Shown here one piece after another: positions 43,792 through 60,835 of a DNA stretch of 64,000 bases. The DNA is taken from positions 1-64,000 of IMG/VR virus record IMGVR_UViG_3300034198_006385. One strand, 5' to 3'. Below the pieces are notes generated by a model. That model did not search any database, had not been told where the DNA came from, and saw nothing but the letters and a program-made list of their open reading frames with translations. The position numbers were made by a program, and so were the translations under genes. This DNA is from a virus. Numbering within the stretch: position 1 is the first letter of the stretch; each line of letters begins with the position of its first letter.

Positions 43792-45537
43792 ATGAGTATT
43801 GAATCTTACGAAGATTATGTAAGTGTTAAAATAATCGGAATGACTGAATCTTTTATTAAAGATAATGTAACTGGCCAAAAATTGACACCACAAGAATTTG
43901 TGGCCTATTGTGCTAGGGTTAGTAATCCATCAAATCAGATGAATAATGACACATCAGAAAATCTTCTTATGTATTGTATTCGTAATAAACATTGGTCGAT
44001 TTTTGAAATGGTCAATATTGCCTGTGAAATTAAAACAACGCGCGATATTTCCCATCAAGCAATTCGTCACCGAAGCCAAAATTTCCAAGAATTTTGTGTT
44101 TCTGGTGACACAAAAATTAGATTTATATTACCAAGTGTTTTAAAACGGGACGGAAATTCATCTTACACAAAAGAAATTGAACATTTATACAATAATTGGA
44201 TTAAAAATTCCCATACACAAAATGTAATTAAAAATATGCATATTCGAGTATATGATGAAGTAAATAAATGTTTTACTACTTCACATATTTCTAATATATT
44301 TAAAACAGGTGTTAAACCAGTATTTAAAGTTACTTTAACTAACGAAAAAACAATTAAATGCACGAAAGAAGAGAGATTTTTCACAAAAAATGGATTTCTT
44401 CCTTTAGAAGAAATTGTTGGTCTAACTAACAATAAAAATATGTGGTCTATGACTAATAATTGTGAAGTTGCAACCAACGGTATTCCTGTCTATCAATCAT
44501 ACGAATGGTTAAAAGAAGCTAAAGAAGAATCTATTATTAAAGGCTTTGGGGTTCCATATATTGCCGAAAAAGCGGGGGTGTCATATCACACAATTAGAAA
44601 ATGGTTAAAAATTAATAAACTTCAATTTACAAAAAAAGAAGTTGCACAATACACCCAAATTTGGAATAAAGGGAAATTCGGATATTCTCTGCCCAAACAT
44701 AAACAAGAAACTATTGAAAAAATGCGTAAAAGTGCTAAACGCGGTGCCGACTCCAATTTATGGAAAGGCGGTGTTGAGCGGTCAGAACGTTTAAAAATTG
44801 CTGATTGGTGTAATGCAAATAGATCATCATTTTTAATAAAATATAATTATACATGTAATAAATGTAATTCTAATAAAAAATTACATCTTCATCATATAAA
44901 ACCCGTATATTCACACTCAGAATTAGCATATGATTTCGACAATATTGAAGTATTATGTAAAAATTGTCATTATGATGTTCATAATTTAAACGGAGATTAT
45001 AAAATCAATAAATCAAAAAAATCTAAATTAGGTATTGAATGGACAACATTTAAGCATATTGAATATATTGGCGAAGAAATGACTTATGATTTAGAAGTTG
45101 AACACAATTCACATAATTATGTTGCAAATAATATTTTAGTTCATAATTCTCAAAGATATGCCGACCCAACACAACTAGATAGTGGATTTGTTGTCAGAGA
45201 AGCAAGGCTTCAAGATAAAAAAAATCGTCAAAATAGTATTGATGTTGAAGATGATAAATTACAAGAAGAATGGATTTCTCGCCAATTAAAACAAATTGAT
45301 CTTGCAAAAGAAAATTATGATTGGGCAGTTGCAAATGGTATTGCAAAAGAACAAGCAAGAGTTGTGCTTCCTGAAGGATTAACCAAAACAACCTATTACA
45401 TTAATGGAACTTTACGTTCCTTTATTCATTACATTCAAGTTCGCGCTGATCCGTCAACACAAAAGGAACACAGAATTATTGCAAATGCTCTACTACAAAA
45501 TTTGCAACAATATTTCCCATTTTTAAATCGGGTCTAA
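43792..45537 (+). CDS. thyX: Flavin-dependent thymidylate synthase ThyX containing an intein
   Basis: AYCARVSNP, HWS.FEM, RHRS.NFQEF | SQRY, G.AKEQAR.VLP, TQKEH. Confidence 0.95.
   Translation: MSIESYEDYVSVKIIGMTESFIKDNVTGQKLTPQEFVAYCARVSNPSNQMNNDTSENLLMYCIRNKHWSIFEMVNIACEIKTTRDISHQAIRHRSQNFQEFCVSGDTKIRFILPSVLKRDGNSSYTKEIEHLYNNWIKNSHTQNVIKNMHIRVYDEVNKCFTTSHISNIFKTGVKPVFKVTLTNEKTIKCTKEERFFTKNGFLPLEEIVGLTNNKNMWSMTNNCEVATNGIPVYQSYEWLKEAKEESIIKGFGVPYIAEKAGVSYHTIRKWLKINKLQFTKKEVAQYTQIWNKGKFGYSLPKHKQETIEKMRKSAKRGADSNLWKGGVERSERLKIADWCNANRSSFLIKYNYTCNKCNSNKKLHLHHIKPVYSHSELAYDFDNIEVLCKNCHYDVHNLNGDYKINKSKKSKLGIEWTTFKHIEYIGEEMTYDLEVEHNSHNYVANNILVHNSQRYADPTQLDSGFVVREARLQDKKNRQNSIDVEDDKLQEEWISRQLKQIDLAKENYDWAVANGIAKEQARVVLPEGLTKTTYYINGTLRSFIHYIQVRADPSTQKEHRIIANALLQNLQQYFPFLNRV
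44095..45147 (+). mobile_element. Intein (351 aa) with HNH homing endonuclease
   Basis: Starts CVSGDT, ends YDLEV...HNYVANNILVHN with +1 Ser; internal HTH and CxxC...HHI...N...LCxxCH...H. Confidence 0.93.
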
Positions 45538-56391: not shown

Positions 56392-56466
56392 TGGAGCACC
56401 CACCCAGGATTGAACTGAAAATTGAAGATTACAAATCTACTGTTTTGCCAATTAAACTATAGGTGC
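56392..56466 (-). tRNA. tRNA-Thr(TGT)
   Basis: Acceptor GCACCTA/TGGGTGC, loop TT-TGT-AA, GTTCAATC, CCA encoded; one mismatch in the anticodon stem. Confidence 0.85.
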
Positions 56467-57210: not shown

Positions 57211-57423
57211 TCACTTTCGCGGGGGATTGATGTCAATATCAACTAGATAAGGATCGCCTGCTTGAACATACCAATCTGGTGCAGTTGGGCTGGTATTTTT
57301 AGCGTTTTCTTTATCTCTAAATTCTTCAGCTTCTTTCAAAGTTAGAAAATCTGTATCAGACCAATGTTTTGATCCCCAACCGCGTTCATATTCTCTTAAA
57401 GTAACTCTGTATCGTGCCTGCAT
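57211..57423 (-). CDS. Conserved phage hypothetical protein
   Basis: E.ERGWG.K....F....EA....N......PDWY..A. Confidence 0.65.
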   Translation of the reverse strand: MQARYRVTLREYERGWGSKHWSDTDFLTLKEAEEFRDKENAKNTSPTAPDWYVQAGDPYLVDIDINPPRK

Positions 57424-57440
57424 TTTAAAATTCCTTTAAA

Positions 57441-57520
57441 TGGTGCGGCCAACGGGGATCGAACCCGCATTTTCTGGCTTGAAAGGCCGGAGTCCTAGTC
57501 CTAATTTAGACGACAGCCGC
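57441..57520 (-). tRNA. tRNA-Glu(TTC)
   Basis: Acceptor GCGGCTG/TGGCCGC, loop CT-TTC-AA, GGTTCGATCC, CCA encoded; enlarged D-loop. Confidence 0.88.
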
Positions 57521-57526
57521 TTTAGA

Positions 57527-57709
57527 TCAAATTTTAGACCATCCTGTATTTGATGCAATATCACCTTCAAGATGCTTACGTAGGTATACTACACTGCGGT
57601 CTAGACTGTCAAGAAGAACCTCATAGTCACCATAAACTTCTTTGAGTAAGTCACCATTATAATCTTTGATTTGTTGTTTGTTAATTGCAATCGAATCATA
57701 TTTAATCAT
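57527..57709 (-). CDS. Hypothetical protein
   Basis: Short ORF in operon. Confidence 0.4.
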   Translation of the reverse strand: MIKYDSIAINKQQIKDYNGDLLKEVYGDYEVLLDSLDRSVVYLRKHLEGDIASNTGWSKI

Positions 57710-57905
57710 TTTGTAATCCCAATCTTTTCAAATCTTTGGATGATAGTTGTTCTTTGGTGGCATAATAATATCTAGATTTGTTTCTGTAAATGCCTTGACT
57801 TTTTTGAATAGTTTTCTTCAGAATAACATCATACTGATAATTACCAAACAAAATAGTTTTACCATATTGATCAACATATGAACGATCAGGAGGAAATTCT
57901 TTCAT
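57702..57905 (-). CDS. Hypothetical protein
   Basis: Short ORF; start uncertain. Confidence 0.4.
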   Translation of the reverse strand: MKEFPPDRSYVDQYGKTILFGNYQYDVILKKTIQKSQGIYRNKSRYYYATKEQLSSKDLKRLGLQND

Positions 57906-57961
57906 TTCGACCCAATACCAAATACCGTTGCGCCATATTTAATTTCCTTTATATATAAAAT

Positions 57962-58195
57962 CAATTGCCACATGAAGATGAAAAATATCAAATTAATAAA
58001 AGCGATTATGCAATAAACAATATTCAATATGAAATAAGCAAAAGGCTTAATCTTGGATCAATAAACAATGCCGCTTATATACGGACTAATTAAACCAAGG
58101 GTCAATTTGCCAAATGATATGAGCAATCCCATATCTTTCTGATAATTGTTTTGCTATATTAAATAAATATAATCCTTCTCCATGTGGCATCCCGT
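57962..58195 (-). ncRNA. Candidate structured non-coding RNA
   Basis: No ORF in the track; closing helix TGCCACATG/CATGTGGCA, nested stems and a duplicated ATTGTTTATTG. Confidence 0.45.
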
Positions 58196-58205
58196 AACCT
58201 TTCGA

Positions 58206-58802
58206 TTACAGAATTTTTGCGAATTTTAAAAATTCCGCCATTTCTGATGACAATGTAATTTCATGCGACAGATTAAGAGAAATTAACTTGTCACTAATGT
58301 CCTGCAATTCTTTCTTGCGATTATTAATCCTATTTTTCAGGAGATCAATCTCTTTCTGAGAATATACTGAAAAGGATTGACGATCAACCGCGTTGTGAAA
58401 ATCCCGCCCATCGCGTTTCGCGGAAAATTCTAAGATTTTTTTAATTTCTTCATTGGATTTTGATGGTGTAAGCCTAGATACCAACTCTTTCAGAAATTGA
58501 ATTTCCATAAGAATTGTATTACGCAAAGCCAATAATTCATTAATTCTGGTGGAGGAATTTAATGCGCCAACTTTAGTGCGAATGTCAACCAGAATTGTTT
58601 CTAGATACGAAACATCAGCAAATACTACTTCGTTTTCCACAAAACGATCATAAAGGACTTTTTCAAAGTCAACAGTATCATGATCCCACACGTTAAACCA
58701 AATTTCAGTATTTGAACGAAGTTCATTCCTCTTTTCTTTGATTTTCTCAATGATTGCGGATTGAACAGCGGCGGCGTTGCGTAGGTTGATATTTGCTAAC
58801 AT
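58206..58802 (-). CDS. Long coiled-coil protein
   Basis: I.LR.A.A.Q..I, IR..V...N....IN..L, K..LQ...D.L..LN....I.L; loosely DIP1984-like. Confidence 0.6.
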   Translation of the reverse strand: MLANINLRNAAAVQSAIIEKIKEKRNELRSNTEIWFNVWDHDTVDFEKVLYDRFVENEVVFADVSYLETILVDIRTKVGALNSSTRINELLALRNTILMEIQFLKELVSRLTPSKSNEEIKKILEFSAKRDGRDFHNAVDRQSFSVYSQKEIDLLKNRINNRKKELQDISDKLISLNLSHEITLSSEMAEFLKFAKIL

Positions 58803-58814
58803 GATATAGTTCCT

Positions 58815-59135
58815 TTAAAAATTCAAACGGGGAATTAGTTTACCAATTTCTTCTTTTACAATCTCATTACATTGTTTTTTAATATCGGCTAACATCTGTT
58901 GACGATCATCGCCTCGTGTTTTTTTCCATAAATGAGTATTACGACTCATGTCAAGAGACATTTTATCCTCAAACTTGGATTTTGCAAACGAGAAGCGAAT
59001 AGTAGCATATTCATCGGTATAAAGCAAGCCCGAACCTGAACACATTGTATGAACTTCTTCATTGTCTTCACTTCCAATTAGATTGAAAATATGAAAACTA
59101 ATCATGTCAATATTAACTGTTACAACTGGTGGCAT
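58815..59135 (-). CDS. Hypothetical protein
   Basis: ORF in operon orientation. Confidence 0.45.
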   Translation of the reverse strand: MPPVVTVNIDMISFHIFNLIGSEDNEEVHTMCSGSGLLYTDEYATIRFSFAKSKFEDKMSLDMSRNTHLWKKTRGDDRQQMLADIKKQCNEIVKEEIGKLIPRLNF

Positions 59136-59138
59136 AAG

Positions 59139-59294
59139 TTAATCTTCTTCGTGTTGTTGCATTAATTCTTGGGCTGCTTCAAATCCTTCCCAATTATCAA
59201 CACCAACTTCTACTAGACAATTAAGAAAAATTGAATCATTAAGTAGTTCGTTGTATTCTTCTAGGGTGATAGTGATTGTTGGTTTTTCTGTCAT
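59139..59294 (-). CDS. Small acidic protein with GVDNW.G motif (51 aa, not in the ORF track)
   Basis: MTEKPTITITLEEYNELLNDSIFLNCLVEVGVDNWEGFEAAQELMQQHEED fills the gap between neighbours. Confidence 0.7.
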   Translation of the reverse strand: MTEKPTITITLEEYNELLNDSIFLNCLVEVGVDNWEGFEAAQELMQQHEED

Positions 59295-59549
59295 TTATTT
59301 ATATCCCATATTTTTTAGCATTCTAGCAATAAGATTCCACACATGCAAGTTTAATCGTGGATAATTCTTGACTGATCCAGTTCTATTGGTTTTCTCTTGG
59401 ATCAGTGCATCATCTTTACCACGATACGTTACGCCTGCATAATTACCTTTTTGTGAAGTTCCAGTTCCATCATTATAAAGTTTCATTTTAGCAATTTCTG
59501 TAACTTTACCAGTGATGGCGGAATGTAATTCAACCGTTATTATTAGCAT
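59295..59549 (-). CDS. Conserved phage hypothetical protein
   Basis: M..IT.EL, I/L.NDGTG....GNY, V..YPR....VW.L. Confidence 0.6.
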   Translation of the reverse strand: MLIITVELHSAITGKVTEIAKMKLYNDGTGTSQKGNYAGVTYRGKDDALIQEKTNRTGSVKNYPRLNLHVWNLIARMLKNMGYK

Positions 59550-60573: not shown

Positions 60574-60646
60574 TGCGCGCACTAGGATTTGAACGCAGAA
60601 TCAATCGGTTATGAGCCGACAGCTTTGCCAATTAAGCTATACGCGC
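60574..60646 (-). tRNA. tRNA with CAT anticodon (Met or Ile2), partly degenerate
   Basis: Acceptor GCGCGTA/TGCGCGC, loop CT-CAT-AA; T-stem has a C-C mismatch and the 3' end reads ATTA instead of ACCA. Confidence 0.7.
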
Positions 60647-60758: not shown

Positions 60759-60835
60759 TGGTCCGCATGGCCGGATTCGAACCAGCAACCTACAGATTAG
60801 AAATCTGTTGCACTGTCCAGTTGTGCTACATGCGG
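60759..60835 (-). tRNA. tRNA-Arg(TCT)
   Basis: Acceptor CCGCATG/CATGCGG, ACAGA-TT TCT AA-TCTGT, GGTTCGAATCC, CCA encoded. Confidence 0.93.

Follow-up and report, generated by a model that had tools for sequence, protein, structure and literature searches.

A gap of 300 nt (57906-58205) in a densely coding viral DNA raises the question of what it encodes. The gap lies in a stretch of 64,000 nt (the window, positions 1 to 64,000 of the 86,662-nt IMG/VR record IMGVR_UViG_3300034198_006385), just 3' of a gene for a 198-aa protein on the minus strand. The first-pass annotation described it as one of the longest gaps of the region, closed by an inverted repeat, containing nested stems and an 11-nt direct repeat, beginning about 16 nt after the stop codon of a coiled-coil protein gene, and being neither a tRNA nor a simple terminator. 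It inferred an undescribed ncRNA which partners the upstream protein as an RNP or a toxin-antitoxin-like pair. We have now confirmed this observation in every detail. The proposed partnership is supported by the comparative evidence, although the choice between RNP and toxin-antitoxin-like pair was not settled.

Structure of the element in the gap

The inverted repeat TGCCACATG (57966-57974)/CATGTGGCA (58181-58189), the stems AGCAAAA/TTTTGCT (58037-58043/58149-58155), CTTGG/CCAAG (58052-58056/58095-58099) and GATATG/CATATC (58116-58121/58130-58135), and the direct repeat CAATAAACAAT (58011-58021 and 58059-58069) are all present. The repeat occurs only here in the record. Using a greedy call of ORFs of at least 45 aa (120 ORFs), the gap is the fourth longest in the record. 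The features of the locus are as follows.

58206-58802, minus strand: gene for the 198-aa protein, predicted to be all-helical, a member of an unnamed phage family of about 190 aa
57961-58194, minus strand: the structured ncRNA element as a whole, about 225-234 nt, with ends set by the closing helix (the true transcript ends are not known)
58153-58189, minus strand: 5' strand of the closing helix P1, purine-rich (UGCCACAUGGAGAAGGA), followed by three stacked extensions
57966-58003, minus strand: 3' strand of P1, pyrimidine-rich (UUCAUCUUCAUGUGGCA), plus extensions
58103-58148, minus strand: 5'-domain hairpin with the apical stem GAUAUGGG/CUCAUAUC (58135-58128/58123-58116), located where relatives have the variable P2/P3 hairpins
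58052-58099, minus strand: P4 hairpin (CUUGG 58099-58095/CCAAG 58056-58052), whose loop carries a small hairpin and two UUG triplets 7 nt apart (58068 and 58061)
58007-58041, minus strand: tract of five heptads in register, UUGCUUA, UUUCAUA, UUGAAUA, UUGUUUA and UUGCAUA, with UUG at 58041, 58027, 58020 and 58013
57441-57520, minus strand: tRNA-Glu, one of four tRNAs (the others at 56392-56466, 60574-60646 and 60759-60835), all on the strand of the gene and the element

On the minus strand, with G-U pairs, the closing helix extends to 16 bp (58189-58173/57982-57966). A further 14 bp follow in three stacked segments (58170-58166/57989-57985, 58162-58157/57998-57993 and 58155-58153/58003-58001), giving an interrupted helix of roughly 30 bp. 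The G-U pairs form only on the minus strand. One copy of the direct repeat lies in the heptad tract (58011-58021) and the other in the P4 loop (58059-58069). There are 12 TTG in the element against 6.6 expected.

Folding no better than shuffled sequence had been named in advance as a result that would count against the element. The minus-strand fold (-72.7 kcal/mol) has a z of -2.77, with 0 of 200 shuffles as good, whereas the plus strand gives a z of -1.54, with 16 of 200 as good. Among 2306 windows of 230 nt across the whole record, on both strands and corrected for composition, only one has a residual as low as this element (z -4.0). A strongly folding region near 39.5-40.2 kb was found to be ordinary coding sequence.

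ARAGORN found the four tRNAs elsewhere in the window and no tRNA or tmRNA in the gap, and no terminator-like site was found in 57300-59300. An Rfam search, also suggested beforehand, gave no match at gathering scores in the window other than the four tRNAs. At E<=5, no Rfam 15 family (including GOLLD, ROOL, tmRNA, 6S and Y RNA) matched 57880-58230 or the element of another related viral locus (L039).

It is very unlikely that the gap instead holds small protein genes, with the hairpins being incidental or regulating their translation. A 34-aa ORF (58086-58190) starts with ATG after a GGG tract, and the small insertions seen within it in relatives sum to 3 nt. A hydrophobic 41-aa ORF (57902-58027) has a stop overlapping the ATG of the next gene (ATGA). 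However, neither ORF has a Pfam or PHROG match, and we saw no counterpart of either by eye in the ORF list and gap sequence of the closest relative, L004. The 11-mer TTGTTTATTGC shared by the two phages is read in different frames. In close relatives, a 7-nt insertion and a break of homology at 57959 both disrupt the 41-aa ORF.

Conservation of the RNA beside a protein gene

A word-indexed protein search with the 198-aa protein found only the protein itself, and scans for closely related loci with it found nothing. An exact 26-nt pattern from the helix was not found in viral contigs, and the upstream 106-aa protein has only one other cluster. In contrast, 91 cluster representatives at E<=0.001 aligned with the 198-aa protein over its full length. 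The family was found at 373 places in IMG/VR, using the single closest protein and a 12-sequence subset for the locus scans, and 80 related viral loci were examined for the RNA.

The covariance model R1 was built from 18 loci without the window. It finds exactly one match in 77 of the 80 loci, all 77 on the strand of the protein gene, with E from 3e-23 to 2e-7. The three loci without a match (L044, L054 and L069) are cut short on the relevant side. The one locus from a bacterial collection (L208, a MAG contig) has the RNA too. In the cultured Caulobacter phages CcrColossus and CcrPW, an unannotated gap of 284-292 nt follows the homologue, and the best model hit in each phage locus lies in that gap; the CcrColossus gap, between gp272 and gp273 (NC_019406, 201299-201582), folds with a z of -4.97. 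The ~190-aa family is the only protein shared by 51 of 51 compared loci. L004, whose protein is 28% identical, has the same arrangement, with a fold z of -4.43.

The absence of a conserved gap or of covariation among homologues had likewise been set beforehand as a refuting outcome, and the opposite was found. Of 30 consensus pairs, 23 have changes on both sides, a number reached by 0 of 500 shuffles. In total, 91.5% of cells are paired against 77.3% in shuffles (0 of 500 reach it), and partners slid by 1-3 columns give only 44-54% paired. The alignments were built by MAFFT from loci that we chose using a helix heuristic, and R-scape was not run. As P1 pairs a purine tract with a pyrimidine tract, RNAduplex scoring of the closing helix against shuffles of one arm was uninformative (median z -1.5), and support for P1 therefore rests on column-wise covariation. 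G-U pairs are frequent in P1, so only the sense strand keeps the helix. The purine-rich 5' strand of P1 in the window corresponds to the purine-rich 5' arm in 18 aligned relatives. P4 covaries in the relatives, whereas the region of the 5'-domain hairpin is variable in the family alignment.

In 51 elements, successive TTG lie exactly 7 nt apart 177 times against 13.4 expected, and there are 10.8 TTG per element against 5.9 expected. About seven UG sites are invariant across 46 sequences that share 46% mean identity, and conservation is concentrated on UG dinucleotides every 7 nt, with indels which are not multiples of 3. Related freshwater contigs carry small insertions in the 5'-domain hairpin and an exact 7-nt insertion, one more UUGCAUA unit, in the heptad tract, and their homology to the window breaks just past the helix (57959).

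The copy in the window agrees with the relatives in its position next to and on the strand of the protein gene, the purine/pyrimidine closing helix joining ends about 220 nt apart, the P4 hairpin with its two UUG triplets, and the run of heptads between P4 and the 3' strand of P1, which aligns to the invariant UG columns of the family. Both models built without it, which cover the 3' domain only, place their best window hit in the gap on the minus strand: R1 at 58006-58099 (17.2 bits, E 0.17; next best 13) and R2 at 57974-58097 (17.9 bits, E 0.03; next best 10.8). R1 aligns P4 to model positions 13-58 with one non-standard pair, and this is its only hit at E<=10 in the whole record. These scores are weak and by themselves leave the assignment of the window copy undecided, since a hit of 20.3 bits turned up in 863 kb of unrelated viral DNA preselected for TTG-rich patterns. 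The latter lies on an in-frame TTG/TGC-rich stretch that we judged by eye to be a low-complexity false positive.

A DNA-level element, such as a replication origin, an iteron array or a recombination site, was also considered, since direct repeats and a large inverted repeat sit in an AT-rich gap and synteny breaks right next to it in relatives. This seems most improbable. The helices are kept through G-U pairs, which are mismatches on the other strand, the compensatory changes preserve pairing and not sequence, the plus strand folds no better than shuffles, the orientation relative to the gene and the tRNAs is fixed in 77 of 77 matches, and a 7-bp period does not fit the DNA helical repeat.

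The RNA is not always 3' of the gene, which refines the first-pass annotation. Among 48 distinct loci, it is directly 3' in 24, further 3' in 3, separated from the gene by another gene in 9 and directly 5' in 12 (by 32-271 nt). The element might be a cis-acting 3' or 5' UTR that stabilises the message or allows the protein to control its own synthesis. No promoter-like or terminator-like site was called between the gene and the element in the window, and repeated short motifs bound by the product of the adjacent gene are typical of autoregulation. We consider this reading unlikely, although it is the strongest of the alternatives. The position switches between the two sides, another ORF lies between the gene and the RNA in 9 of 48 loci, and in the locus L036 a tRNA lies between them. 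A tRNA abuts the element within 40 nt in 7 loci and in L004. In L004 and the loci L059 and L070 it follows within 10 nt, so tRNA processing would cut the element from the mRNA. Moreover, a 30-bp helix joining the two ends is the form of a stable processed RNA. No RNA run contains the sequence, so a discrete RNA and its ends, the detection of which had also been named as a test, are not shown. In the relatives, 264 of 264 flanking tRNAs are on the strand of the pair.

The neighbouring protein family

The AF2 model of the 198-aa protein is all-helical (pLDDT 95.5). The protein is predicted to form a homodimer, with a score of 0.69 against a best control of 0.00; in calibration, 20 of 30 true homodimers and 1 of 23 single chains reached that mark. 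The runs agree in at least 94% of contacts and the pLDDT of the partner is at least 88. The window protein has no Pfam or PHROG family, and the searches including PADLOC gave no match above noise. Foldseek against the PDB gave no match at E<=0.001.

The best structural match is 3kdq, a DIP1984/DUF6847 protein of unknown function (VIA-align Z 11.2, rmsd 6.8 over 146 residues; Foldseek E 0.015, TM 0.48/0.59), and the structural neighbours in the Atlas have a TM of 0.52-0.62. These values do not decide whether the fold is shared, as Z 11 is within the range that helical bundles reach by arrangement alone. The window protein does not reach the curated cut-off of PF20935 or NF038048. Of 40 family members, 1 (Pfam) and 2 (NCBIfam NF038048, E 6e-4) reach only weak E-values.

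A type III toxin-antitoxin-like pair (as in ToxIN, CptIN and TenpIN), in which a repeat-bearing RNA neutralises the adjacent protein, would agree with the tight linkage and the tandem short repeats, but fits poorly and is very doubtful. The predicted helical bundle has no ToxN/AbiQ-type endoribonuclease fold. The repeat unit is 7 nt inside one folded RNA, whereas type III antitoxins are made of tandem direct repeats of about 34-36 nt encoded upstream of the toxin gene; here the RNA follows the gene in the window and in 36 of 48 distinct loci. The pair was found almost only in phage contigs, and only 1 of 185,579 bacterial and archaeal species genomes held a relative that matched the single peptide pattern of the scan.

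The RNA and the protein might also both be cargo of tRNA islands without touching each other, the RNA acting alone, for example as a decoy or sponge for a host factor or the ribosome, and the protein acting on the same pathway. The family is not basic (median pI 6.15 and median net charge -1 over 40 members), which is unusual for a general RNA binder, and binding was not assayed. By our reading of the sequences, which was not tested further, the purine strand of P1 looks like a Shine-Dalgarno tract and the pyrimidine strand like its partner in 16S rRNA. This explanation is nevertheless improbable, as the linkage is much tighter than shared cargo would give, with one adjacent and co-oriented RNA per protein gene in 77 of 80 loci and no other gene shared. 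The pair also occurs in loci without any tRNA within 2 kb (11 of 48). A degenerate heptad pattern (15 specified bases) matched at least 118 stretches of viral contigs, none encoding the protein family, which were treated as chance matches and do not address whether the RNA occurs without the protein; this was not examined otherwise.

A probable phage RNA-protein pair and comparable systems

Taken together, the analysis shows that the gap encodes, on the minus strand, a divergent member of a widespread and so far unnamed class of structured phage RNA of about 230 nt. The class has a long closing helix with a purine-rich 5' strand and a pyrimidine-rich 3' strand, variable 5' hairpins, a conserved internal hairpin (P4) and single-stranded UUG (or UG) triplets every 7 nt, both in the P4 loop and in a run of 4-7 units before the 3' strand of the closing helix. 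It lies next to, and on the same strand as, the gene for the ~190-aa protein, and the pair usually sits inside a phage tRNA island. Our confidence in this part is high. What we infer beyond it is that the RNA is transcribed with the neighbouring tRNAs, cut out as a stable RNA whose paired ends protect it, and works together with the protein as an RNP, in which the predicted dimers would bind the regularly spaced UUG units, one unit per binding site. The whole statement, including this inference, is only somewhat more likely than not. The function of the particle is unknown, and the context points to translation or tRNA biology during infection.

The GOLLD and ROOL RNAs (RF02032 and RF03087) are also structured phage ncRNAs of unknown function, often in or beside tRNA islands (PMC12286853; PMC5737381). 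They are 580-800 nt or more, against about 230 nt here, and the present RNA has a dedicated neighbouring protein gene and a 7-nt UUG periodicity. GOLLD has no identified protein partner. It occurs 0.5-1.4 kb past the 3' end of the element in 6 of 20 related loci, and is absent from the other 14 and from the window. The phage T4 RNAs rnaC and rnaD (species 1 and 2) are likewise stable RNAs of unknown function at the end of the tRNA cluster, on the tRNA strand (NC_000866). They are 139 and 119 nt long, R1 gives no hit on them, and the nearby 197-aa T4 protein e.6 is unrelated to the family (hhalign probability 0.7%). HutP (UAG) and TRAP (GAG/UAG), and CsrA with sponge RNAs such as CsrB/RsmZ, are oligomeric proteins that read short motifs repeated at a fixed spacing on unpaired RNA; the HutP sites are triplets with 4-nt spacers, which is also a 7-nt period. 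HutP and TRAP act on mRNA leaders and CsrB-type RNAs on a global regulator, and their proteins have beta-rich folds, in contrast to the helical bundle predicted here. Literature searches on GOLLD, ROOL and their associated proteins, structured RNAs of tRNA islands, DUF6847, RNA-seq of CcrColossus and UUG or heptanucleotide repeats showed no description of this RNA or of the pair, nor did the papers cited here, although a catalogue of 8,495 candidate viral RNAs of 29-151 nt (PMC10690425) may contain pieces of the element in its supplements, which we did not see.

It is possible, though unlikely on present evidence, that the pair is a previously unrecognised phage ribonucleoprotein in which dimers of a new helical protein would assemble along a (UUGNNNN)n track displayed by a dedicated RNA, which would be a new way of reading RNA. 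Encoded within tRNA islands, it would act on the translation or tRNA machinery of the host, for instance as a shield or decoy against tRNA-targeting defences, or as a ribosome modulator through its Shine-Dalgarno-like closing helix.

The finding gives a name and an annotation to an unannotated gap of roughly 230-300 nt. Large orphan RNAs of phage tRNA islands have resisted functional study, partly because no protein partner has been identified, as one of the papers cited above states for ROOL. The RNA described here is a smaller one from the same genomic niche, which comes with a constant protein neighbour, a simple recognition feature (UUG every 7 nt, with natural variation in the number of units) and cultured representatives in Caulobacter phages. 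The question of what tRNA-island RNAs do thereby becomes directly testable.

The gap, its fold and the neighbouring protein

The 86.7-kb viral record from which the window was taken is estimated to be about half complete and has a G+C content of about 30%. The window carries ribonucleotide reductase and a ThyX thymidylate synthase gene interrupted by an intein with an HNH endonuclease domain (43792-45537, plus strand; Pfam Thy1, Intein_splicing and HNH), as well as four tRNAs, all on the minus strand. The genes surrounding the gap also run on the minus strand, and the features of this region are as follows.

58815-59294, minus strand: two genes (106 aa and 51 aa) upstream of the 198-aa gene
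58206-58802, minus strand: ORF of 198 aa
57905, minus strand: start of the next ORF of 45 aa or more
57441-57520, minus strand: tRNA-Glu, 80 nt, anticodon at position 38

The tRNA-Glu has the lowest Rfam score of the four tRNAs (44 bits), and its nearest DNA matches among named phages are tRNA-Glu genes of jumbo Brevundimonas phages (80-82% identity). The 300 nt between the two ORFs form the fourth longest gap in the record. The observation made in the first-pass annotation held, since every repeat listed there was found at the positions it gave. On the minus strand, the 9-bp inverted repeat is extended through G-U pairs into a 16-bp helix with three stacked extensions, about 30 bp in all, which closes a 224-nt domain. 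A comparison with shuffled sequence had been set beforehand as a trial of the proposed RNA, and the minus-strand fold was better than all 200 shuffles (z -2.77), whereas the plus strand was not (z -1.54). In a composition-corrected scan of 2306 windows of 230 nt over the whole record, only one was as extreme. Several of the strongest composition-corrected folds of the record lie outside the window, at about 81750-82200, in a stretch with unusually high G+C content for this phage (43-55%) next to a 280-nt gap (81479-81758); this stretch was not searched against Rfam. ARAGORN, a terminator scan and the Rfam search that had been suggested as a check found nothing in the gap of the 198-aa gene.

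A word-indexed search with the 198-aa protein found only the protein itself, but an exhaustive HMMER search found 91 cluster representatives of 183-214 aa, aligned end to end at 21-30% identity. The family is not named in Pfam, PHROGs, NCBIfam or PADLOC. AlphaFold with the family alignment provided a confident all-helical model with two short strands (pLDDT 95.5). Its best structural match was 3kdq, a Corynebacterium protein of unknown function of the DIP1984/DUF6847 type (Z 11.2 over 146 residues; Foldseek E 0.015), a level that is suggestive but not decisive for a helical bundle. A two-copy prediction passed the dimer test with a score of 0.69 against 0.00 for the best of 3 controls; in calibration, this mark was reached by 20 of 30 true homodimers and 1 of 23 single chains. 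The runs agreed in at least 94% of contacts and the pLDDT of the partner was at least 88.

Conservation, covariation and the heptad repeat

The closest relative of the protein (28% identity) lies on two viral contigs, L004 and L005, which share the two upstream genes with the window. These two genes are shared only with the L004/L005 phage (the 106-aa protein is 44% identical) and have no family name. A conserved gap in homologues had been named in advance as a requirement of the proposal, and a 270-nt gap was found to follow the gene there too. It folds with z -4.43 and is closed by a helix which shares the CACAUG/CAUGUG core but is otherwise different in sequence. A tRNA-Pro starts a few bases after that helix. 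A subset alignment of the family retrieved 373 viral places, of which the best 80 were kept. A simple stem scan showed that many of them have a helix of 9-15 bp, the purine-rich arm of which starts 25-50 nt after the stop codon, whereas the pyrimidine-rich arm lies about 220-230 nt further on.

Eighteen such elements (236-273 nt, 52% mean column identity) were aligned to look for covariation, which had likewise been named as a test. RNAalifold gave 30 consensus pairs, 23 of them with compensatory changes. Counted on that structure, 91.5% of cells pair, against 77.3% in column shuffles (0 of 500 reached the observed value), and the 23 pairs with double changes compare with 15.7 in shuffles (0 of 500). 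Sliding the 3' partners by 1-3 columns reduced pairing to 44-54%. The architecture consists of the long closing helix P1 in two segments, variable hairpins, the two-part helix P4 whose loop ends in UUGNNNNUUG, an unpaired run of UUG or GUG units, an optional hairpin and two more units before the 3' strand of P1. G-U pairs are common in P1 (for example in 8 of 18 and 7 of 18 sequences at two positions), and the helix therefore exists only on the strand of the gene.

In 51 elements (48 distinct relatives plus the window, L004 and CcrColossus), successive TTG triplets are exactly 7 nt apart 177 times, against 13.4 expected from shuffles, and TTG is about twice as frequent as expected. In a 46-sequence alignment of the 3' domain, about seven UG sites are invariant at 46% mean identity. 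The window has, at 58041-58007 on the minus strand, the consecutive units UUGCUUA, UUUCAUA, UUGAAUA, UUGUUUA and UUGCAUA, and two more units in the P4 loop. The 11-nt direct repeat listed in the first-pass annotation is two adjacent units of this kind. Contigs from freshwater metagenomes that are 90-95% identical to the window carry a 7-nt insertion here, which adds one more UUGCAUA unit; these are contigs of DNA runs and say nothing about expression. Their similarity to the window stops at 57930 on one contig and at 57959, seven bases past the helix, on others, with different sequence beyond. The short stretch between the RNA and the next gene is therefore a rearrangement point in this phage lineage.

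Linkage to the protein gene and membership of the window copy

Covariance modelling was confined to the 3' domain. Model R1 comprises 155 positions and was built from 18 loci, with the window and L004 left out. R1 found one match in 77 of 80 family loci, all on the strand of the gene, with E from 3e-23 to 2e-7, and the three loci without a match are cut short.

Position of the RNA relative to the gene in the 48 distinct loci
Starts 20-50 nt after the stop codon: 24 loci
Somewhat further downstream: 3 loci
About 0.5 kb downstream, with another ORF between: 9 loci
Just upstream of the gene: 12 loci

An all-against-all comparison of flanking ORFs showed that the ~190-aa family is the only protein shared by all 51 loci compared. 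Of the 48 distinct loci, 37 carry tRNAs within about 2 kb, 264 tRNAs in total, all on the strand of the module, and in seven loci a tRNA abuts the RNA within 40 nt. In a scan seeded by a single conserved peptide pattern, only one of 185,579 bacterial and archaeal species genomes gave a confirmed relative, which lies on an 11-kb MAG contig that also carries the RNA. Among 50,697 phage records, tblastn with the three family members tried (P0043, P0003 and P0007) found the family only in Caulobacter phages CcrColossus and CcrPW. An unannotated gap of 284-292 nt follows the homologue there (gp272 or gp307). The CcrColossus gap folds with z -4.97 and shows the same closing helix, P4 and six heptads, although the gap itself is far more G+C-rich (about 50% in the model hit) than that of the window. 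A strong G+C-rich hairpin without a U tract, which may be a processing or stabilising signal, sits just after gp272, between the stop codon and the 5' strand of the closing helix (3599-3640 of L206, the CcrColossus locus).

With filters off, the best hit of R1 over the window plus L004 was in the L004 gap (25.1 bits, E 0.006) and the second was at window 58006-58099, minus strand (17.2 bits, E 0.17). Both cover the same model positions, and the next hit scored 13 bits. The window hit is the only R1 hit at E 10 or better in the whole record. Model R2, built from 46 sequences including L004 and the Caulobacter phages but not the window, gave 17.9 bits (E 0.03) at 57974-58097, minus strand, and its next hit scored 10.8 bits. 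These scores are modest and do not by themselves settle whether the window copy belongs: a control set of 863 kb of unrelated viral DNA, preselected for a TTG-rich pattern, produced one 20.3-bit hit, which lies on an in-frame TTG/TGC-rich stretch that we judged by eye to be a low-complexity false positive. Membership therefore rests on agreement between several features, i.e. the top hit on the right strand beside the right gene, the closing helix, P4 with its two loop units and the in-register heptads.

Excluded identities and the probable mode of action

No Rfam family matched the element in the window or in a strong relative, even at E 5. At gathering scores, the 20 related loci examined showed only tRNAs, GOLLD further downstream in six loci and freshwater-2 in two. 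GOLLD RNA (RF02032, 162-213 bits) lies 0.5-1.4 kb past the 3' end of the RNA element, on the same strand, in related loci L039 (3721-4182), L060, L061, L066, L068 and L047, and in 5 of them a tRNA is nested in its linker; the window itself has no GOLLD. The freshwater-2 RNA motif (RF02980, 57 bits) lies about 0.5 kb downstream of the module in L040 and L020 (3327-3399). The rnaC and rnaD of phage T4 share the context but not the model, and T4 e.6 is unrelated. The two small ORFs in the gap (34 and 41 aa) have no family match and we saw no counterpart by eye in L004. The 41-aa ORF is disrupted in close relatives by the 7-nt insertion and the homology break. No description of this RNA or of the pair was found in Rfam 15 or in the literature searched, although a 2023 catalogue of 8,495 short candidate viral RNAs may list fragments of the element in supplements that were not examined. 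The interpretation in the first-pass annotation, an undescribed ncRNA that partners the upstream protein, was supported.

The analysis demonstrates a conserved, strand-specific RNA structure with strictly periodic unpaired UUG units, which is inseparable in the genome from one protein family, although occurrence of the RNA without the protein was not assessed, and which is embedded co-directionally among tRNAs. The main rival reading is a cis-acting mRNA element, but the variable side and distance of the RNA and the tRNAs lying between or right beside it count against this. One observation is unexplained: the 5' strand of P1 is Shine-Dalgarno-like (GGAG or GGAGG in many members) and is paired with a CCUCC-like strand, which is our reading of the sequences without a statistical test. 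The mode of action is an inference from these data, and neither the function of the RNA nor its expression as a discrete species was examined. Direct binding by the protein is opposed by the near-neutral charge of the family (median pI 6.15) and is not backed by any experiment. In the inferred mode of action, the RNA would be made as part of tRNA-island transcripts and released by the tRNA-processing enzymes that cut its neighbours, the 30-bp helix joining its ends would stabilise it, and the dimeric protein would bind the heptad track.
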